A program made the translations under genes and the position numbers. The notes below the pieces were generated by a model. That model did no database searches. It had not been told where the DNA came from and saw only the letters and a list, made by a program, of their open reading frames with translations. Below, piece by piece: positions 13 through 7,972 of a stretch of DNA of 7,972 nt. Source of the DNA: a virus. Lineage: Duplodnaviria; Heunggongvirae; Uroviricota; Caudoviricetes. The stretch lies in IMG/VR virus record IMGVR_UViG_2681813263_000012; one strand, 5' to 3'. Within the stretch, counting starts at the first letter, position 1; every line of letters begins with the position of its first letter.

Positions 13-984
13 TTAAGCGCAGCTATTTAGTGAATTAAGTAAATTAGTCAGTGACCTTGTAAAGTCTGTTAAACCTTCCTGTGAACCATCGAACATTAAG
101 GCCAGATTATTATTCCATGAATTACTTAAGCGGCCTAACTGCGTCTGAGTAGAGTTAATAATCTTTTCCCATCCACCAGCTTTATCAATCATCCTTCCCA
201 TTTCAGCGGATACTTTAGGAAGAACATCTTTAGAAAGAACCTTACCGTCTTTCATGGCCTTGTCTAATTCTTCCGTAGTCATCCCAAGACTTCTGGCAAA
301 TAACTGAAAAGCACCTGCCATTCTGTCACCTAATTGACCGCGTAGCTCTTCAGCCTGAATCTTTCCTTTAGATGCCATCTGCTCGAAAGCTTTTAAAATC
401 CCGTTAATTTCATCGGTGCTTAGCCCCATTAATCTGGATGTACCAATCACATTAGAAAATAAGGATTCTTTCTGGTCTGCATTCATATCACCAGCACCAG
501 CGGAAAACTTAGCAAAACTGCTTAATGTTTCAATCTGGTCTACACCACTACTATCAGCAAGATTCTTAACAAATTCTGTAGCTCGTTTAGCACCTTCATC
601 ACCTAAAACGAATTGTGCCGCTCGTTGTGATGCTTCTTTTTTCAGACCAACCTCCATAATCCGCCTGTAAGCTTCTAAGGCTGTCTGAAAACTATAAATG
701 GCTGTACCTGCTTTGATTGCACTCGTAGCTAATACATCCAGACTATTTGAAGCATTTTCACTGTGATTATTTTTGCTGGTGGTCTTGTTAAACTTAGAAA
801 GTGTTTCACGAAGAGACTGATTTAACTTTGCTAACTCACGATTAAAAGTTTCGTTTCCAAGTGTCTTGGATTTACTGCTTAAGCTGTAATACTGGCTTTT
901 AAAATACTTCTCAAGCATAGGATTAAAGTCACGAAGCTTGCTCATATTCGCTGAGTAAGCTGCTGTGATTGCTCTGCTTCCGCT
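13..984 (-). CDS. Tail tape-measure-domain protein, C-terminal 324 aa visible; 5' end lost in N-run
   Basis: Minus-strand ORF ending in TAA at 13-15. Visible segment contains ...KGKIQAEELRGQLGDRMAGAFQLFARSLGMTTEELDKAMKDGKV..., which I recognise from memory as the conserved tape-measure domain motif of phage tail length tape measure proteins. The true start is inside the N-run, so the 689-aa ORF-track length is not real. Confidence 0.55.
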   Translation of the reverse strand, partial: SGSRAITAAYSANMSKLRDFNPMLEKYFKSQYYSLSSKSKTLGNETFNRELAKLNQSLRETLSKFNKTTSKNNHSENASNSLDVLATSAIKAGTAIYSFQTALEAYRRIMEVGLKKEASQRAAQFVLGDEGAKRATEFVKNLADSSGVDQIETLSSFAKFSAGAGDMNADQKESLFSNVIGTSRLMGLSTDEINGILKAFEQMASKGKIQAEELRGQLGDRMAGAFQLFARSLGMTTEELDKAMKDGKVLSKDVLPKVSAEMGRMIDKAGGWEKIINSTQTQLGRLSNSWNNNLALMFDGSQEGLTDFTRSLTNLLNSLNSCA

Positions 985-2065
985 NNNNNNNNNNNNNNNN
1001 NNNNNNNNNNNNNNNNNNNNNNNNNNNNNNNNNNNNNNNNNNNNNNNNNNNNNNNNNNNNNNNNNNNNNNNNNNNNNNNNNNNNNNNNNNNNNNNNNNNN
1101 NNNNNNNNNNNNNNNNNNNNNNNNNNNNNNNNNNNNNNNNNNNNNNNNNNNNNNNNNNNNNNNNNNNNNNNNNNNNNNNNNNNNNNNNNNNNNNNNNNNN
1201 NNNNNNNNNNNNNNNNNNNNNNNNNNNNNNNNNNNNNNNNNNNNNNNNNNNNNNNNNNNNNNNNNNNNNNNNNNNNNNNNNNNNNNNNNNNNNNNNNNNN
1301 NNNNNNNNNNNNNNNNNNNNNNNNNNNNNNNNNNNNNNNNNNNNNNNNNNNNNNNNNNNNNNNNNNNNNNNNNNNNNNNNNNNNNNNNNNNNNNNNNNNN
1401 NNNNNNNNNNNNNNNNNNNNNNNNNNNNNNNNNNNNNNNNNNNNNNNNNNNNNNNNNNNNNNNNNNNNNNNNNNNNNNNNNNNNNNNNNNNNNNNNNNNN
1501 NNNNNNNNNNNNNNNNNNNNNNNNNNNNNNNNNNNNNNNNNNNNNNNNNNNNNNNNNNNNNNNNNNNNNNNNNNNNNNNNNNNNNNNNNNNNNNNNNNNN
1601 NNNNNNNNNNNNNNNNNNNNNNNNNNNNNNNNNNNNNNNNNNNNNNNNNNNNNNNNNNNNNNNNNNNNNNNNNNNNNNNNNNNNNNNNNNNNNNNNNNNN
1701 NNNNNNNNNNNNNNNNNNNNNNNNNNNNNNNNNNNNNNNNNNNNNNNNNNNNNNNNNNNNNNNNNNNNNNNNNNNNNNNNNNNNNNNNNNNNNNNNNNNN
1801 NNNNNNNNNNNNNNNNNNNNNNNNNNNNNNNNNNNNNNNNNNNNNNNNNNNNNNNNNNNNNNNNNNNNNNNNNNNNNNNNNNNNNNNNNNNNNNNNNNNN
1901 NNNNNNNNNNNNNNNNNNNNNNNNNNNNNNNNNNNNNNNNNNNNNNNNNNNNNNNNNNNNNNNNNNNNNNNNNNNNNNNNNNNNNNNNNNNNNNNNNNNN
2001 NNNNNNNNNNNNNNNNNNNNNNNNNNNNNNNNNNNNNNNNNNNNNNNNNNNNNNNNNNNNNNNNN
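985..2065. other. N-masked gap (1081 nt)
   Basis: Uninterrupted run of n. It hides the 3' end of the 2066-2590 gene and the 5' end of the tape-measure-like gene. Confidence 1.
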
Positions 2066-2590
2066 CTGAAGAATCTCTTCATCTGTTTTATCAGTCATCA
2101 GAATAAATTGACCAGAACCCCTTAATGCTTGTCTGACATCAATTAACCGGAACCCTTCAGGGATACTTTGAAGAACTTTAGGAACGTCTTCAATCGCTGT
2201 ACCAAAACCATCATTAAAGTTTCCTTCATAATAGATAAACGGGTTTGACTTAATCTCGTAAGCAATATCATATTCTGAAGGTTTCGAGGTTTCTTCGAAG
2301 TTCTTAACAGCATCGTAAGCGACATCAAGTCTAAGACGCTGTGATTTTAAAGCTGGGTAATATTCACGCTCAAGCTCAAATAGTGCTTCAGTTTTGCAGA
2401 TATCAGGCATTTCTTGAGGCTCAGGAGACACAAAGGAAATTACCTTTGGTGACATCTTTAGCTCTTGCTCAAGCTCAATGCGCTTGTCATGCTCTTGACG
2501 CTGAATAGTATGTAGCGGATGTTCACCCTGTGGTGACCAGTCTCCGAAGCTATCAACCTTTTTACCGTTAATATATAAATCGTTTGTCAT
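2066..2590 (-). CDS. Hypothetical phage protein, N-terminal 175 aa visible; 3' end in N-run
   Basis: ATG at 2590-2588 preceded by AGAGGA about 8 nt upstream on the minus strand. Open frame continues uninterrupted to the N-run (MTNDLYINGKKVDSFGDWSPQ...). No family recognised. Confidence 0.6.
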
Positions 2591-2614
2591 TATAATTTCC
2601 TCTAAGTGTGGTTA

Positions 2615-2692
2615 TTTCTTAATAGAGCACCTTCAACGCCAATACACTTAGAAGATGACTTAACGATTTATTAAAGATGCTCTATTAAGAAA
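2615..2692. repeat. Perfect 15-bp inverted repeat (arms 2615-2629 and 2678-2692) with 48-bp spacer, in the leader of the 2590 gene
   Basis: tttcttaatagagca at 2615-2629 is the exact reverse complement of tgctctattaagaaa at 2678-2692, checked base by base. Confidence 0.8.
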
Positions 2693-2721
2693 AGCCCTAA
2701 ACATAATCTGTGAAGGGCTTT
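2691..2721 (-). terminator. Candidate hairpin, weak intrinsic terminator or leader structure
   Basis: 8-bp stem aaagccct (2691-2698) / agggcttt (2714-2721) with a 15-nt loop. On the minus strand it is followed by tcttaat, only moderately U-rich. It abuts the right arm of the 15-bp inverted repeat. Confidence 0.25.
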
Positions 2722-2769
2722 GGAGGTTTGCTTATAACGTTAACGAAGTTTCAGGAAAACTTTCTTTAA

Positions 2770-2816
2770 NNNNNNNNNNNNNNNNNNNNNNNNNNNNNNN
2801 NNNNNNNNNNNNNNNN
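2770..2816. other. N-masked gap (47 nt)
   Basis: Run of n. Confidence 1.
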
Positions 2817-2912
2817 TCATTCGTTCACCCCTTAGTTTATTTGTTATTTCAATTTATAGAAGCACACTCAGCAATCAGAGGTGAAGAGTCTGACTGAACA
2901 AGAACCTGCCAA

Positions 2913-3578
2913 NNNNNNNNNNNNNNNNNNNNNNNNNNNNNNNNNNNNNNNNNNNNNNNNNNNNNNNNNNNNNNNNNNNNNNNNNNNNNNNNNNNNNNNN
3001 NNNNNNNNNNNNNNNNNNNNNNNNNNNNNNNNNNNNNNNNNNNNNNNNNNNNNNNNNNNNNNNNNNNNNNNNNNNNNNNNNNNNNNNNNNNNNNNNNNNN
3101 NNNNNNNNNNNNNNNNNNNNNNNNNNNNNNNNNNNNNNNNNNNNNNNNNNNNNNNNNNNNNNNNNNNNNNNNNNNNNNNNNNNNNNNNNNNNNNNNNNNN
3201 NNNNNNNNNNNNNNNNNNNNNNNNNNNNNNNNNNNNNNNNNNNNNNNNNNNNNNNNNNNNNNNNNNNNNNNNNNNNNNNNNNNNNNNNNNNNNNNNNNNN
3301 NNNNNNNNNNNNNNNNNNNNNNNNNNNNNNNNNNNNNNNNNNNNNNNNNNNNNNNNNNNNNNNNNNNNNNNNNNNNNNNNNNNNNNNNNNNNNNNNNNNN
3401 NNNNNNNNNNNNNNNNNNNNNNNNNNNNNNNNNNNNNNNNNNNNNNNNNNNNNNNNNNNNNNNNNNNNNNNNNNNNNNNNNNNNNNNNNNNNNNNNNNNN
3501 NNNNNNNNNNNNNNNNNNNNNNNNNNNNNNNNNNNNNNNNNNNNNNNNNNNNNNNNNNNNNNNNNNNNNNNNNNNNNN
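2913..3578. other. N-masked gap (666 nt)
   Basis: Run of n immediately downstream (minus sense) of paralog B. It hides the paralog B 3' end and whatever follows. Confidence 1.
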
Positions 3579-3873
3579 GAATATTATCGCTATACAAAAT
3601 TGCTATAGCCGCCTTGAGATATTTTTCAGGGCTAACGCTGTATTTGTTCGTTTCTTCGATAATAAGACGCTTCATGTTTGAGTCGGTAACAGGAAACATA
3701 AAACGCGGTTCACCAGTTTCAATTTCCTGAATAAAGTCTTCAATTTCTTCTGAGTTTTCAGCCATTAGCTTTAGTAATTTATCAAGGTCAATTGATACAC
3801 CGGAATCAGCGAAAGCCTGCACCATCATAGCAGTGTCGCTATCAATGAAAATCTGTAATTCATATTCGTTCAT
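3579..3873 (-). CDS. Small hypothetical protein, paralog B of the 4515-4838 gene; first 98 aa visible, 3' end in N-run
   Basis: ATG at 3873-3871 with AGGAG 8-9 nt upstream (aaaaggagattttaaaaATG). The protein MNEYELQIFIDSDTAMMVQAFADSG...AILYSDNI aligns along its whole length with the 4515-4838 product. The ORF-track TTG start at 3906 is unlikely. Confidence 0.7.
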
Positions 3874-4211
3874 TTTTAAAATCTCCTTTTTACCAGACCT
3901 CCTCAATCGCTCTGTAACGAGCTAAACAGTCTTTTTCAGGGGTAGCCTGTACAGTGGTATTACCCACCCTAAAATAAGATAGTTTTTTGCGTTAGAATGC
4001 GATTGAGAGCGTCTGATAAGCTGTTTTTCTAATTTCTCTTAAAGTCTCGGACTACCAATAACCTAATTCCGCTTTATTTCGTTCAAACCATTCCGCTGTA
4101 ACTGCTGTCTTTAGTGTTGCGTTTGGGCTGGTGGCATGAATGAAGATATCTTTTGGATTGCAAGCATCACCGAAACCACCTTCTTTGATGAGCAGGTCTG
4201 ATACATGCTTA

Positions 4212-4222
4212 NNNNNNNNNNN
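4212..4222. other. N-masked gap (11 nt, not a multiple of 3)
   Basis: Run of n. The reading frame across it cannot be trusted. Confidence 1.
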
Positions 4223-4384
4223 GCAAAGGATTCAATAATGAATGAACAAGAGTACTTTTTGAGATAGCCTCTCAGACTAACCTGAAAGGCCATGACGAAA
4301 AGCATTGCACCTTTCCAACTCAGAATATCCATCCATCGGATTATTGAAAGAAAAATAAGAGAGAATTGCTCTCCCATAATTAAA

Positions 4385-4413
4385 ATTATGCCATGCTTAA
4401 GGTTATTTGTCAA
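4385..4413 (-). promoter_or_regulatory. Candidate sigma70-type promoter (TTGACA-17 nt-CATAAT) reading leftward
   Basis: Minus-strand TTGACA at 4413-4408, a 17-nt spacer, then CATAAT at 4390-4385. A weak hairpin and U-tract follow at about 4377-4346 (gggagag-caatt-ctctctt then ttattttt). Confidence 0.35.
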
Positions 4414-4437
4414 CAGCTTTTTAACAGGTTGATAACA

Positions 4438-4515
4438 TCAATTCTTATTTACCGCATTGTTAATAATACAACCAACAAATAAGCCAAGCAACGTCCAAGC
4501 AATTATTAAACCCAT
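4438..4515 (-). CDS. Candidate 25-aa hydrophobic peptide (MGLIIAWTLLGLFVGCIINNAVNKN), translationally coupled to paralog A
   Basis: Its ATG at 4515-4513 overlaps the paralog A stop as TAATG. GAGGG lies about 9 nt upstream. A single predicted transmembrane-like helix, then TGA at 4440-4438. Too short for the ORF track; found by manual translation. Confidence 0.3.
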   Translation of the reverse strand: MGLIIAWTLLGLFVGCIINNAVNKN

Positions 4516-4838
4516 TAGTGAACCCTCACAGAATCCGTCACCAGAATATTATCACTGTACAGGATTGTCACAGCACCTTTCAAAAATTGCTCTGGGGAAA
4601 TACTGTATATGTTCGTTTGCTCGATAACCAATCTTTTCATGTTGCTGTCTGTAATTGGTAGCATCATTCGAGGCTCGTTAAACTCCACCGACTGAATAAA
4701 GTCAGAGATGTTTTCTGCATTATCAGCCATCAGCTTTAGTAATTTATCAAAATTAATTGCGATACCTGCATCAATGAAGCTTTGCACCATCATAGCAGTG
4801 TCGTTATCAACCATAATTTGCATTGGGTAATTATTCAT
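4515..4838 (-). CDS. Small hypothetical protein (107 aa), paralog A
   Basis: ATG at 4838-4836 with AGGAG about 8 nt upstream (cataggagatttaaaaATG); stop TAA at 4515-4517. Product MNNYPMQIMVDNDTAMMVQSFIDAGIAINFDKLLKLMADN... The longer ORF-track start at 4961 lacks an RBS and lies in the leader. Confidence 0.75.
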   Translation of the reverse strand: MNNYPMQIMVDNDTAMMVQSFIDAGIAINFDKLLKLMADNAENISDFIQSVEFNEPRMMLPITDSNMKRLVIEQTNIYSISPEQFLKGAVTILYSDNILVTDSVRVH

Positions 4839-5005
4839 TTTTAAATCTCCTATGAAACACACCTCAGACCTCTTAAAATAGCCATTCTGAGGCCAGTAAC
4901 CATGCGGGTTACAGAGGGAGTTGCACTGGCTGGTAAGGTAATTTATCAAATTAAGGTGCAACTCTGCCTGTAAAGTGCATTCTACCGTTTCTTAGATGGT
5001 TATTT

Positions 5006-5425
5006 TTAATTGTCTTTATTAATCAATGATTTAACGTAGAAATACTGTCTCCGTGAAATACCATATTTTTCTGTAATGTATCGCTGAGATTGACCAGCAT
5101 TTATGGCCTGAGTGATATCATCACGGTTATAGCGGTTACCACGGGATTTATATTTGTCACCATCCACATCTTCTGAGGTATTGAAGTCTTCAATCAGCTT
5201 AATTGCATCGTGAAGGTCATCTTCTGAGGCATAATCGAAGGTATGGATAATCTCAAAATCACCAGTATCTGCTGGTGCATTCTTCCATCTGGAGAAGCGG
5301 GATTTTAATTGCTGGTGTGTGAAGGGTTCAGCATTACGAGTTAAATCTTTCCATGTTCCGTTATTCTCACGGACAAGGTGACCTCTATGGCGATAAAACG
5401 CATGATAATCAAATGTGCATAGCAT
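5006..5425 (-). CDS. DNA-binding protein with C-terminal Hin/resolvase-type HTH (139 aa)
   Basis: Start overlaps the upstream RHH gene stop (TAATG). The C-terminus ...ITQAINAGQSQRYITEKYGISRRQYFYV fits the helix-turn-helix pattern of resolvase/invertase C-terminal domains. The N-terminal domain is unrecognised. Confidence 0.7.
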   Translation of the reverse strand: MLCTFDYHAFYRHRGHLVRENNGTWKDLTRNAEPFTHQQLKSRFSRWKNAPADTGDFEIIHTFDYASEDDLHDAIKLIEDFNTSEDVDGDKYKSRGNRYNRDDITQAINAGQSQRYITEKYGISRRQYFYVKSLINKDN

Positions 5426-5715
5426 TAAACCCCCAGCTTATCCGCCAGTTGATGAACCTTGGCACTCAACACCTGAATCATTGAGCAACCTGCCACTGCG
5501 GACTGTGCTTTGAGTAGTTCCAGTTGGCCCGTTGTGATTCTGATGGCCTTAGAACCCTCTGCAACGCCCTTGATAGCGTCAAACGGTGTAAGGGCTGTGT
5601 GTTCCTTCAGAATCTCACCAACAAGTGCTGTGTGGCTCATGGCTGGGTATTTGTCTTTGATTGCTGCCAGTCTGGAATATGCCTCTGGCAAAAGGCGTGT
5701 AACTGTGTGTCTCAT
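5425..5715 (-). CDS. Ribbon-helix-helix (CopG/Arc-like) DNA-binding regulator, probably tandem RHH (96 aa)
   Basis: ATG at 5715-5713 with AAGGAA about 8 nt upstream. N-terminus MRHTVTRLLPEAYSRLAAIKDKYPAMSHTALVGEILKEH fits a beta-strand/helix/helix RHH fold pattern. A second similar unit (KAIRITTGQLELLKAQSAVAGCSMIQVLSAKVHQL) follows. Confidence 0.65.
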   Translation of the reverse strand: MRHTVTRLLPEAYSRLAAIKDKYPAMSHTALVGEILKEHTALTPFDAIKGVAEGSKAIRITTGQLELLKAQSAVAGCSMIQVLSAKVHQLADKLGV

Positions 5716-5853
5716 TAAATTTTCCTTCTTAAAATCTTTGACTTATAACTAACTTTAACATATTTATAACATATTGTCAACAACTCATTTACATGTTAAT
5801 ATGGTTGTAGGGGGCTGATACAGGTCATTCCCTTTGATAAATAAGGGGAATTA
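5716..5853. promoter_or_regulatory. Divergent AT-rich intergenic region with promoter-like hexamers and a 9-bp direct repeat (candidate operator)
   Basis: TAACATATT at 5756-5764 and again at 5767-5775, spaced 11 bp. TTGTCAA at 5774-5780 reads as TTGACA on the minus strand and TTGTCA on the plus strand. TTGACT at 5738-5743. Plus-strand TTGTCA-17-TAATAT at 5774-5802. Confidence 0.4.
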
Positions 5854-6039
5854 ATGGGCTTTCTTGAAACAATTGCTGAATCTCACAGATTCGCAAGCTT
5901 AGGTTGCTTTGTGTTTCTGGTGCTTCTTGTGTATCAGCTTTTAAAAATGATTATCGCCAAAAGTACACGATTCAATTTCAGCATTAAGCTTTTCAAATAT
6001 GAAATCACAATTACGATTGATGATGGTAAAACAAACTAA
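5854..6039 (+). CDS. Candidate small membrane protein (61 aa, one hydrophobic helix)
   Basis: The only plus-strand ORF with a good RBS (AAGGGG 5 nt before ATG at 5854). Hydrophobic stretch LGCFVFLVLLVYQLL. Its stop overlaps the stop of the convergent minus-strand gene, so it could be antisense noise. Confidence 0.4.
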   Translation: MGFLETIAESHRFASLGCFVFLVLLVYQLLKMIIAKSTRFNFSIKLFKYEITITIDDGKTN

Positions 6040-6326
6040 CGTTTTGTGATAATATTGGTGGCCTTTAAGTTGCTGGGGTCACCGTCTTTTAATCGTAGCT
6101 GGTGGATTGAATTCCAGATATCAAAATGATACAGCACTGCAAACCTCAAAGCGTCAATCTTTAAATCTGTCACACCATCGTAAAAGAAATAACCCCTCCC
6201 TTCTTTCTTTGGTCTAATCCGGTAAACTTCCCCGTGAGTATCCTTCATAAGATGACCTTCACGAGAAATGCTGTAACGCTTTAACAGGTAATCTTTGTAT
6301 CTCTTTTCACCGTGATATTCTTTCAT
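6036..6326 (-). CDS. Hypothetical protein (96 aa), possibly nuclease-like
   Basis: ATG at 6326-6324 overlaps the upstream stop (TAATG), with GGAGG about 9 nt upstream. C-terminal ...HFDIWNSIHQLRLKDGDPSNLKATNI only loosely resembles HNH-type motifs; this is not a confident assignment. Confidence 0.6.
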   Translation of the reverse strand: MKEYHGEKRYKDYLLKRYSISREGHLMKDTHGEVYRIRPKKEGRGYFFYDGVTDLKIDALRFAVLYHFDIWNSIHQLRLKDGDPSNLKATNIITKR

Positions 6327-6808
6327 TACTTAATTCCTCCACCGGCAAAATACATCTTCGGTTTAATTTTTTGCTTCTTGTCATCCTGAGTTTGTTTCTT
6401 TTTCGGTGAAAGATAATAATCATCTTCACTGTCATCGAATGGGTCTAAACCCGATACTTTGTTCTTTTGTCTTGCAAGCTCGAATCTCTTTTTCTTCTCT
6501 GCCCTCTTAATGGCTTTTTCACGTTCATCCTCTTCATCATCGAAGGGGTCCAACTCATCATCAGTGGCGGGGCACTGTGTGTTTTTATGGTCACTATCAA
6601 CACTCACATCAGTGATTTCTCTGTCTTGTTTAGAAGTCTTTTTAGAGCTTACTTCAAGGTCAGATTCATTCATAGAGAGAAAATCATTTAATTCATCCAA
6701 AGAAAGAAAGTCATCTTCTTTAATATCATCATTAAGTCCAGTCTCTTTATTCTTATCTGTAATATTATTATCTAATGTTTTATCTAATAACTTATCTAAC
6801 TCTAACAC
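6326..6808 (-). CDS. Highly acidic, low-complexity protein (160 aa) with repeated LDPFDD(E/S)EDD motif and a basic C-terminal tail
   Basis: Probable GTG start at 6808-6806 with AGAGG about 8 nt upstream and an in-frame stop just before it. The first internal ATG lacks an RBS. D/E-rich with two LDPFDD copies. The 5' coding region coincides with the AT-rich origin-like repeats. Confidence 0.55.
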   Translation of the reverse strand: MLELDKLLDKTLDNNITDKNKETGLNDDIKEDDFLSLDELNDFLSMNESDLEVSSKKTSKQDREITDVSVDSDHKNTQCPATDDELDPFDDEEDEREKAIKRAEKKKRFELARQKNKVSGLDPFDDSEDDYYLSPKKKQTQDDKKQKIKPKMYFAGGGIK

Positions 6809-6886
6809 GGGTGACCTCTAACACGGGTGACATTTTGTCACTACCCCCATGACATTTTGTCACTGGTAGTGGTGTCATTTTGTCTT
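6753..6886. repeat. Origin-like repeat block: AT-rich TTATCTAA 12-mers, a 16-bp tandem repeat x2, and three iteron-like repeats at 22-bp phasing
   Basis: TTATCTAA at 6768, 6780 and 6792 (12-bp spacing), plus ttatctgt at 6753. ctctaacacgggtgac at 6800-6815 and 6816-6831, perfect tandem. gtgacattttgtcact at 6827-6842, atgacattttgtcact at 6849-6864, and degenerate ggtgtcattttgtctt at 6871-6886. All checked base by base. Confidence 0.6.
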
Positions 6887-7230
6887 ACTGAGGCTGCAAC
6901 TTCCTGTGATGTAGGTCTTACAAGTAATTCCGGCTTATCATCCAGTGTGAATACACGATAAGTGCTTTGACGCCCCTGATTCTTTTGCACCTGAATTAAA
7001 CCGTGTTTCTCAAGTGTCTCAATGGCTCTGATTGCTGTTCTCTTTGATACACCAGCCATATAAGCGAGATGGTCAATACTTGGTGAATATGATTTGTATT
7101 TCTCTTCATAGAAGTCACAGCTATGGACCATGACCATATAAATCAATCTTGCTGCTGCGTTAATTTCTTCTGAAAGTTGAGAGATTCGCACATCAAATTT
7201 ATAAAACTGATTTGGGTTATATTTAGACAT
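6841..7230 (-). CDS. Replication initiator-like protein, lambda-O N-terminal-type winged HTH (129 aa)
   Basis: ATG at 7230-7228 with GAGGT about 9 nt upstream; stop TAG at 6841-6843. Segment ...SIDHLAYMAGVSKRTAIRAIETLEKHGLIQVQ... matches the HTH pattern I recall for phage O-type and plasmid replication-initiator N-terminal domains. The gene's 3' end overlaps the iterons. Confidence 0.65.
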   Translation of the reverse strand: MSKYNPNQFYKFDVRISQLSEEINAAARLIYMVMVHSCDFYEEKYKSYSPSIDHLAYMAGVSKRTAIRAIETLEKHGLIQVQKNQGRQSTYRVFTLDDKPELLVRPTSQEVAASVRQNDTTTSDKMSWG

Positions 7231-7460
7231 TCATAAATTACCTCATACGTGAAAAGGCCAACCGGATAAAACCGATTAGCCTGTGTGATTAAAATATCTG
7301 GGGGATTGATGGACTGATAAAGAAGTCCATGCCTGAAACAGTACGATGATTAAAACGCTGAGGTATACCCTGAATGAGAGGTTAATATACGCCAACCATC
7401 TGACACCTCCCCAAGTGTTACCACTTCAAGACATGAACTTTTTTATCAGCCCATATAGAA

Positions 7461-7489
7461 ACTATAACAGATGTGATTATAAATTGCAA
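7461..7489 (-). promoter_or_regulatory. Candidate sigma70-type promoter (TTGCAA-17 nt-TATAGT) for the replication operon
   Basis: Minus-strand TTGCAA at 7489-7484, a 17-nt spacer, then TATAGT at 7466-7461. It lies in the 363-bp non-coding gap upstream of the initiator gene. Confidence 0.3.
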
Positions 7490-7593
7490 CAATTATTTCA
7501 CAGAATGATTACTGATTGGTCATTTATTGTTCACGGGGATACTTCTTAACATCTGAATCACCTGTCTTGTAAATGACCATATTTATGAGAATT

Positions 7594-7972
7594 TTAGCTC
7601 AACCTTTGAGCAATCCTGTATGACGTGCTCAGAGGCATTCTGAGAGCATCTGCAATGTACTTAATGGGTTTTCCTTGCCTGTATAGTTTTATGAAGCTGT
7701 CGAGCGTCTCAGGTGGGTAAATGGTGGGTCTTCCTCTTAGTCCACCACGGTTAATGATGGTTAACGGTAGCAATGTATCAGCACAGCAAACCATCTGTGT
7801 AATTTCATGCTTACGTGGTTCTTTTTTAAAAACAACGACTGCACTTGGAAACGGTGACCTAATAGTAAGCCTGTTATGCCCTGCTGGTGGAAGGTATTTA
7901 ACTGCACGATGAAGAATACGGATTTCATGACAGTGGTTATTGCTGTAAATGTGCCTAAGCCAGTAGCTGGTG
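7594..7972 (-). CDS. DNA-binding protein with C-terminal Hin/resolvase-type HTH; 5' end beyond window
   Basis: Manual translation shows the frame of ORF 7594-7794 stays open up to the window edge (...TSYWLRHIYSNNHCHEIRILHRAVKYLPPAGHNRLTIRSPFPSAVVVFKKEPRKHEITQMVCC...). C-terminus GRPTIYPPETLDSFIKLYRQGKPIKYIADALRMPLSTSYRIAQ fits the resolvase-type HTH pattern. No serine-recombinase catalytic motifs in the visible part. Confidence 0.45.
   Translation of the reverse strand, partial: TSYWLRHIYSNNHCHEIRILHRAVKYLPPAGHNRLTIRSPFPSAVVVFKKEPRKHEITQMVCCADTLLPLTIINRGGLRGRPTIYPPETLDSFIKLYRQGKPIKYIADALRMPLSTSYRIAQRLS

Follow-up and report, generated by a model that had tools for sequence, protein, structure and literature searches.

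What is the role of the highly structured segment (2591-2769) that precedes the minus-strand gene starting at position 2590 in the IMG/VR record IMGVR_UViG_2681813263_000012? A sequence-only reading of this 7,972-nt stretch of DNA (the window) had described a perfect 15-bp inverted repeat abutting a small GC-containing hairpin, and had proposed either that the two form alternative terminator and antiterminator structures or that the repeat is a protein operator with widely spaced half-sites. We found both elements to be genuine. The arms of the repeat, 2615-2629 (TTTCTTAATAGAGCA) and 2678-2692 (TGCTCTATTAAGAAA), are by direct reading perfect reverse complements separated by a 48-nt spacer, the small hairpin (2691-2698, AAAGCCCT; 2714-2721, AGGGCTTT) has 8-bp arms, and both lie between the N-run at 2770-2816 and the Shine-Dalgarno (SD) sequence and ATG of the 2590 gene, hereafter gene X. 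The window is AT-rich and carries several N-runs. A repeat search extended the dyad to 22-nt arms (2615-2636 and 2671-2692, 91%), in which both non-Watson-Crick positions are G.U on the minus strand, and lengthened the arms of the small hairpin to 13 nt (11 pairs); positions 2691-2692 are common to the two elements. Between 2560 and 2769, the longest perfect inverted repeat was 15, against a maximum of 11 in 300 shuffles (mode 7). The minus-strand RNA from 2769 to 2570 folded at −60.3 kcal/mol (z = −7.3; none of 200 shuffles did as well), and the plus strand of the same region at −48.2 kcal/mol (z −3.9). Two further pairings, absent from the sequence-only reading, connect the SD region with the hairpin tip and codons 3-6 of gene X with the upper hairpin (Table 1). 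The complementarity between tip and SD region, which had been overlooked, is the most informative feature of the locus.

Segment 2591-2769 is a canonical type-A module, one of three allelic forms described below, and the whole module is compact (about 135 nt). In the predicted structure, the 5' leader of gene X contains a 78-nt RNA hairpin whose lower stem consists of the dyad plus 7 more pairs; the fold is completed by a bulge on the 5' side, a short upper stem and the apical loop CUUCUAA (2654-2648). The hairpin, read from 2692 to 2615, exhibited a folding energy of −35.8 kcal/mol (z −8.85), with −22.2 kcal/mol for the complementary strand. Core nucleotides of the anti-SD sequence at the tip are predicted to be unpaired (P 0.7-1.0), and the tip forms 12 pairs, one of them G.U, with an SD region that begins ~5 nt after the hairpin end and is followed by an 8-nt spacer to the ATG. 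The complementarity between codons 3-6 and the upper hairpin was confined to the window and some type-A loci; since the tip matches the SD and 2671-2662 matches codons 3-6, the tip region resembles an inverted copy of the whole translation-initiation region (TIR). Given this resemblance, an inverted duplication could have left the type-A complementarity behind as a relic. A long-range helix that closes the MFE structure, in which CCUC and CGUUAUAA upstream of the small hairpin pair with the SD, spacer and AUG, was rejected, as relatives show variation in, or deletion of, both its upstream partner and the spacer between SD and ATG. Searches against Rfam 15 returned no family at the gathering score, either in the window or in the unmasked leader of a related locus (L004); the matches obtained were sub-threshold and resembled miRNA precursors, which we attribute to the generic long hairpin.

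Table 1 Features of the type-A leader module and its surroundings in the window.
Feature	Positions	Strand	Basis or remarks
Near-consensus sigma-70 promoter	4385..4413 (4413-4385)	−	TTGACA-17-TG-CATAAT, 11/12; extended −10
Second leader module, type C	2817..2912	−	Both sides cut by N-runs; identical to L109
Small AU-rich hairpin upstream of T2	2747..2761	−	Within conserved 19-mer region by which relatives were gathered
T2, intrinsic-terminator-like	2686..2721	−	AAAGCCCUUCACA-GAUUA-UGUUUAGGGCUUU then UCUU; U-tract UUUUCUU; fold −14 kcal/mol, z −4.15
Type-A leader hairpin, 78 nt	2615..2692	−	Folding; conserved or covarying in relatives
Anti-SD UCUUCUAAGUGU at hairpin tip	2644..2655 (2655->2644)	−	Pairing search; folding ensemble
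SD region ACACUUAGAGGA of gene X (core GAGG 2602-2599)	2598..2609 (2609->2598)	−	
Start codon (ATG) of gene X	2588..2590	−	
Codons 3-6 of gene X (AACGAUUUAU)	2575..2584	−	Complementary to upper hairpin 2671-2662
Gene X, visible N-terminal part	2086..2590	−	First gene of tail-module operon; remainder masked by Ns

We then asked what other loci say about this hairpin. Relatives were gathered by searching viral, genome and metagenome contigs for short strings conserved in the leader, yielding ~80 distinct leader variants. Among these ~80 related loci, the hairpin downstream of the small terminator-like element (T2) occurred as three sequence-unrelated alleles. Type A, exemplified by the window, carries the tip UCUUCUAAGUGU and the SD region ACACUUAGAGGA; type B, exemplified by L001, has the stem CAGCUUUUAAAAAGCAUAC.. 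/ ..GUGUGCUUUUUAAAAACUG, the tip C(U/C)CUCUUCUAAGU and the SD region ACUUAGAAGAGG; and type C, exemplified by L015 and L032, has the stem ..AAAAGCACACU.. / ..AGUGUGCUU.., the tip CUCUUCACCUCUG and the SD region (A)GAGGUGAA. In all three, which fold as long hairpins, the lower stem spans 21-27 bp, the 5' side carries a bulge, and a pyrimidine-rich apical loop tops a short upper stem; the hairpin z-values were −8.85 (A), −7.9 (B), and −5.6 and −5.5 (C). The sequence-only reading had named absence of the dyad from homologous loci as a result that would speak against it. Here the outcome was mixed: the same dyad was present in all type-A loci, whereas types B and C carried different dyads within the same architecture.

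Comparative analysis of 15 representatives by RNAalifold revealed a 23-pair consensus stem in which 13 pairs were changed on both sides. Paired cells amounted to 96.2%, compared with 37-50% when the partners were slid, and the covariation score, which reflects 3-4 independent alleles rather than many independent events (the stem being almost invariant within each allele), was 0.574 versus 0.276 in shuffles, with 0 of 500 as high. Furthermore, the non-Watson-Crick cells of the stem comprised ~39 G.U on the sense strand versus 8 that could form G.U on the other strand, and mean fold energies on the sense and antisense strands were −32.6 and −17.8 kcal/mol for type A, and −36.4 and −28.1 kcal/mol for type B. 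These sequence comparisons indicate that the hairpin forms at the RNA level, on the gene-sense strand, and that it has been kept through three alleles of unrelated sequence.

Each allele also carried its own matched tip/SD pair, with the SD belonging to the gene 10-40 nt downstream and the anti-SD core placed in the apical loop, where it was unpaired in the hairpin ensemble. Cognate tip-TIR duplexes evaluated by RNAduplex had mean energies of −17.6 (A), −17.4 (B) and −14.3 kcal/mol (C), compared with −9.6 to −14.5 kcal/mol for non-cognate combinations; the tip core is the same in types A and B, so that these pairs represent only two independent instances of tip/SD matching. Shuffled tips attained the observed energy in 0 of 1000 trials for the window and 3 of 1000 for the type-B example, and in 40 of 1000 (L015) and 17 of 1000 (L032) for type C, whose tip (UCACCUC) is in essence the anti-SD of the 16S rRNA, a sequence expected to match every strong SD. 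With the opening costs subtracted, the net tip-TIR energies were −10.9, −10.8/−14.4 and −6.5 kcal/mol. The hairpin type and the SD type were completely linked across 77 distinct loci. Over the same loci, the T2 variants and the downstream gene (gene X or its 23%-identical allele, gene Y) reassorted, and recombination junctions fell between the SD and the ATG. Given this linkage in spite of reassortment, the hairpin and the SD behave as one module.

The small GC hairpin proved to be intrinsic-terminator-like. A GC-rich stem-loop stands directly before a U-rich tract on the transcribed strand, and relatives either conserve it or have it swapped for another terminator. The U-tract of T2 doubles as the 5' base of the big hairpin, whose 5' end lies within it. 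A generic terminator scan skipped T2 because of its internal mismatches, and picked up its sister terminator T1 in L004. Other versions of T2 (UAGCCCUUUAUAG..CUAGGGCUUUUU; UUUGCCCUUCAC..) occupied the same site, directly against the hairpin. In two metagenome loci (L058 and L070), the T2 interior is inverted relative to all others (AAAGCCC-TAAACATAATCTGTGAA-GGGCTTT; compare 2699-2713 in the window), and other loci carry loop insertions of 0, 11 or 31 nt. Small inversions and indels cluster in the T2 terminator loop, making it a hotspot.

Canonical relatives have a near-consensus promoter ~390 nt upstream, at the start of a ~390-nt leader; the window carries an inserted or duplicated segment between its promoter (Table 1) and the type-A module. 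The order after the promoter is a 5' hairpin, a short conserved ORF, T1 in many loci, and T2, and the structural genes in these loci are preceded by one to three intrinsic terminators. By analogy, the leader resembles an antitermination-gated leader before structural genes. The upstream leader was located at 4223-4413 (minus strand) in the window and at 5229-5450 in L004. Its 5' stem-loop (4377-4355) covaries among relatives and is terminator-like in the window, and the short ORF has a conserved start, MLFVMA (ATG 4305-4303, SD 4316-4310). In relatives, the 3' arm of T1 could pair with the 5' arm of T2; T1 is missing in several relatives that retain both T2 and the hairpin. The analysis supports the earlier view that the minus-strand transcript bears a structured control region ahead of the gene block with the tape-measure protein.

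We propose, with a probability of about 0.5, that the locus is a two-step module in which termination is followed by repression of gene X translation by an anti-SD RNA, functional steps that we infer from the sequence features above. The strong upstream promoter would supply transcripts, most of which would end at the terminator or terminators, presumably unless an antitermination signal is present. Read-through transcripts would carry the hairpin, and its tip would pair with the SD and keep gene X translation down. How the two would meet is constrained by the fold. The SD is free in the MFE structure, and the penalty for forcing a nested cis pairing of tip and SD is +5.5 kcal/mol for the window and ranges from +13 to +18 kcal/mol for types B and C, so that simple cis fold-back is predicted not to be favoured. 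In types A and B, the tip sits ~30 bp from the stem base and the SD follows only 5-14 nt on, which makes a simple fold-back sterically difficult as well. The pairing might instead be intermolecular, or might follow cleavage of the 21-27-bp stem by RNase III that frees the tip hairpin; release by RNase III is plausible given that a duplex of >20 bp is kept in every allele. Intermolecular or post-processing action, as with the c4 RNA of phage P1, appears more likely than simple fold-back. Alternatively, a cis contact could be hinged at the 5'-side bulge. Geometry led us to reject, for types A and B, an H-type pseudoknot between tip and SD with the stem left intact, since a 5-14-nt linker would face a ~30-bp stem.

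Other explanations of the same observations were weighed against this two-step module. It is possible, if rather unlikely, that the hairpin does no more than provide a site for RNase III processing or for stability, at which a cut would separate the mRNA from the long terminator-rich leader, the tip/SD match then being a functionless relic of inverted TIR duplication. RNase III needs a duplex of about 21 bp or more, and all three alleles offer at least 21 near-perfect base pairs; the 21-27 paired positions of their lower stems exceed the ~20 bp of near-continuous dsRNA that marks a candidate substrate. The free SD of the MFE structure fits such a site, as does the type-A loop, a near reverse complement of the TIR with an 8-nt gap. 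Against this reading, complementarity is kept in alleles with differing tips and SDs and exceeds the non-cognate and shuffled controls, the tip/SD linkage survives frequent recombination at the start codon, and the anti-SD core occupies the apical loop of every allele. The operator proposed in the sequence-only reading fared less well. That the dyad is a DNA operator or cruciform site, bound by an island regulator and with allelic repeats mirroring allelic regulators, is very unlikely, even though the repeat is perfect over 15 bp, HTH proteins are encoded on the island and "immunity types" could account for differing dyads. The arms have been replaced by unrelated sequences with pairing kept, and they show neither a conserved half-site nor covariation free of strand bias; the imperfections are mostly G.U on the gene-sense strand, folding is strand-asymmetric, arms of 21-27 bp placed 34-40 bp apart are unlike known operators, and the second complementarity always has one arm over the SD.

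A classical attenuator, in which the big hairpin and the terminator are alternative structures choosing between read-through and termination, would agree with the abutment of the two elements, their common U-tract, and a leader with a conserved short ORF and a T1 whose 3' arm has a potential partner in T2. We consider it highly improbable, and the terminator/antiterminator proposal of the sequence-only reading was not borne out. The big hairpin and T2 overlap by only 2 nt and coexist in both the MFE and the centroid structures, and the 3' arm of the hairpin is transcribed past the U-tract, after the termination decision has been made; the two elements thus do not constitute a terminator/antiterminator pair. 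Similarly, no conserved competitor that would pair so as to exclude the T2 stem was found in relatives, several of which lack T1 and retain T2 and the hairpin. We also considered a plus-strand cis-antisense RNA to gene X, starting at a promoter-like sequence over the start codon (2568-2596, TTAATA-17-TATAAT, 10/12) and ending at the 2691-2721 hairpin. The plus strand does fold (z −3.9 and −5.1), but its version of the big hairpin is much weaker than that of the gene-sense strand, its −10 element is gone in many type-A and all type-B relatives, and no plus-strand U-tract follows the 2691-2721 hairpin, making this reading extremely improbable.

The element that carries the module was characterized by its distribution and gene content. 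BLAST comparison of the region and its protein with phage and plasmid collections gave no match; the region matched the chromosomes of 412-440 of 5426 complete E. coli genomes (~8%), and the island family also occurs in Salmonella and Shigella. In strain 47-1826, a ~12-kb island lies between tonB and yciI, and encodes, in order, a large serine recombinase, a "baseplate" protein, a tape measure, a 69-aa ORF, gene X, the leader, small genes including an HNH endonuclease, and a small serine recombinase. The island extends over 13-7972 in the window and 8847-20528 in L028. Relatives of gene X are 236 aa long and bear the RefSeq label "transposase"; about 3000 homologues were found in E. coli, Salmonella and Shigella, and searches of gene X against Pfam, PHROG and NCBIfam gave no match. 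Kinship of gene X with phage tape-measure chaperones was rejected for want of real similarity. The island tape measure showed its best similarity (29%, full length) to Felix-O1-type myoviruses, and the "baseplate" protein is 65% identical to the product of the gene after the tape measure in Felixounavirus JLBYU28. A search of the available papers returned no description of the island or of satellites of Felix-O1-type phages. The island looks like an undescribed phage satellite or tail-interference island.

The window adds to this gene set a Rep/O-like HTH gene (6841-7230, minus strand) next to iteron-like direct repeats at 6800-6884, which lie over the 5' end of the gene and extend upstream; CTCTAACACGGGTGAC occurs twice there, and (G/C)(G/A)TG(A/T)CATTTTGTC three times at a spacing of 22-23 bp. 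To judge from these repeats, region 6800-6884 is likely a replication origin. A weak, sub-threshold Rfam match to Qrr at 7248-7329 (minus strand; 21.8 bits, E = 2) rests on a terminator-like stem, GGCUAAUCGG..CCGGUUGGCC, with UUUU after it; the site lies immediately upstream of the Rep-like gene and is probably an ordinary terminator.

The window also contains a second leader module, of type C (Table 1). It retains the 3' two-thirds of its hairpin, with the 5' arm masked, and has the tip CUCUUCACCUCUG (2887-2875), the SD GGGGUGAA (2831-2824) and an ATG at 2820-2818, such that two differing hairpin alleles, C and A, stand in tandem. Tandem type-C/type-A leaders were found in no other fetched locus and in no complete E. 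coli genome. The first leader copy ends at 4223; next comes the 3' end of a different island gene (4100-4211). The small gene usually found ahead of the leader is present twice, at 3581-3873 and 4515-4838, and its copies are 66% identical. Both junctions (4212-4222 and 2770-2816) are in masked stretches. The two small-gene copies and the broken first leader suggest that part of the region was duplicated in tandem or that two islands recombined; together with the second, type-C leader, they point to a tandem or mosaic arrangement of the window.

Resemblance to Felix-O1-type phages is also seen in the leader. The island type-B TIR (ACUUAGAAGAGGAAAAUGAAAUG) looks homologous, by sequence, to the phage tape-measure TIR, which reads ACGAACUUAGAAG(A/G)G.. 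or ..AAAAG.. in Felixounavirus, Mooglevirus and Suspvirus. The tape-measure TIR of JLBYU28 (ACGAACTTAGAAGAGCAGGAAAAATGTAATG; L111 2973-3003, also in L112-L114), in which the start overlaps the chaperone stop, resembles the TIR of genes X and Y. Type-B tips are complementary over 12-15 contiguous nt to ACGAACUUAGAAGAG of Felixounavirus and related phages, which is located at the end of the chaperone gene, 16-30 nt upstream of the start codon of the phage tape measure; the computed net pairing energy of −17.4 kcal/mol is stronger than with the island's own TIR. One could suppose that the hairpin, freed as a small antisense RNA, also acts on a helper phage and silences the phage tape measure while the island supplies its own, 29% identical version, which we regard as quite unlikely. 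Shuffled hairpins gave a 15-nt complement in an 87-kb phage genome in ~1% of trials and a 14-nt complement in ~5-7%, and a second 15-mer match occurs elsewhere in the same phage genome. Phage-mRNA targeting was rejected as an explanation of the match, which is not significant alone on a genome-wide scale and is explained more simply by TIR homology between island and phage. Were the phage-target reading true, it would mean that a satellite-like island not described before uses RNA to hijack, or interfere with, tail assembly.

These results indicate that the feature is real and conserved: a terminator is joined to a covarying hairpin with an allele-matched anti-SD tip, which is absent from Rfam and is a variant of known RNA-control themes, on an apparently undescribed host island related to Felix-O1-type phages. 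If the two-step module holds, this island family would have an RNA lock of exchangeable specificities ahead of tail genes taken over from Felix-O1-type lytic phages, and the few RNA-based controls known in phage-related elements would be joined by an anti-SD RNA that is embedded in a leader and has allelic, matched tip/SD pairs, a situation recalling P1/P7 heteroimmunity. It would also offer a handle on how a probable phage parasite times the expression of stolen structural genes.

Several known systems share parts of this arrangement. In the fold-back inhibition and RNA-OUT control of the IS10 transposase, and in upstream anti-SD sequestration, a sequence upstream of the next TIR is likewise complementary to it and read-through transcripts are poorly translated; here, in contrast, the anti-SD sits atop a ~30-bp stem, where direct fold-back is sterically and energetically disfavoured, and this locus has no internal promoter giving anti-SD-free transcripts. 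RNase III leader hairpins, such as those of the lambda N leader and the T7 early mRNAs, share a near-perfect AU-rich duplex of >20 bp just upstream of the TIR; the present hairpin is a candidate substrate, and differs in its type-matched complementarity between loop and SD, which is not known there. The lambdoid late leader (PR' - tR', 6S RNA, Q antitermination) similarly combines a strong, constitutive-looking promoter with one to three intrinsic terminators ahead of structural (tail) genes, although it has no counterpart to the anti-SD hairpin, and no Q-like gene or qut site was identified here.

The c4 RNA, whose relatives include the P4 CI RNA and the N15 CB RNA, is a structured RNA of ~77-80 nt in a same-strand leader, with exposed sequences complementary to the ribosome-binding site of the next gene; P1 and P7 have allelic versions with matched changes in RNA and target. 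Our comparison is with the c4 antisense RNA of the immI operon in phages P1 and P7 (Citron & Schuster 1990, as cited in PMC8201110). The present element differs from c4 in being a simple long hairpin rather than a tRNA-like RNase P substrate, and in standing behind a terminator and before tail-module genes rather than an antirepressor. The leader has a single c4-like target, at the SD, rather than the two elements a1/b1 and a2/b2, and other near-matches in the window are inside coding regions. The Rfam C4 family (RF01695) gave no match at E <= 10 in the window, nor at E <= 5 in the unmasked L004 leader. As with c4, the leader hairpin described here is encoded on the same strand and exposes a sequence complementary to the downstream ribosome-binding site, and the matched tip/target pairs of types A/B versus type C parallel those of P1 versus P7.
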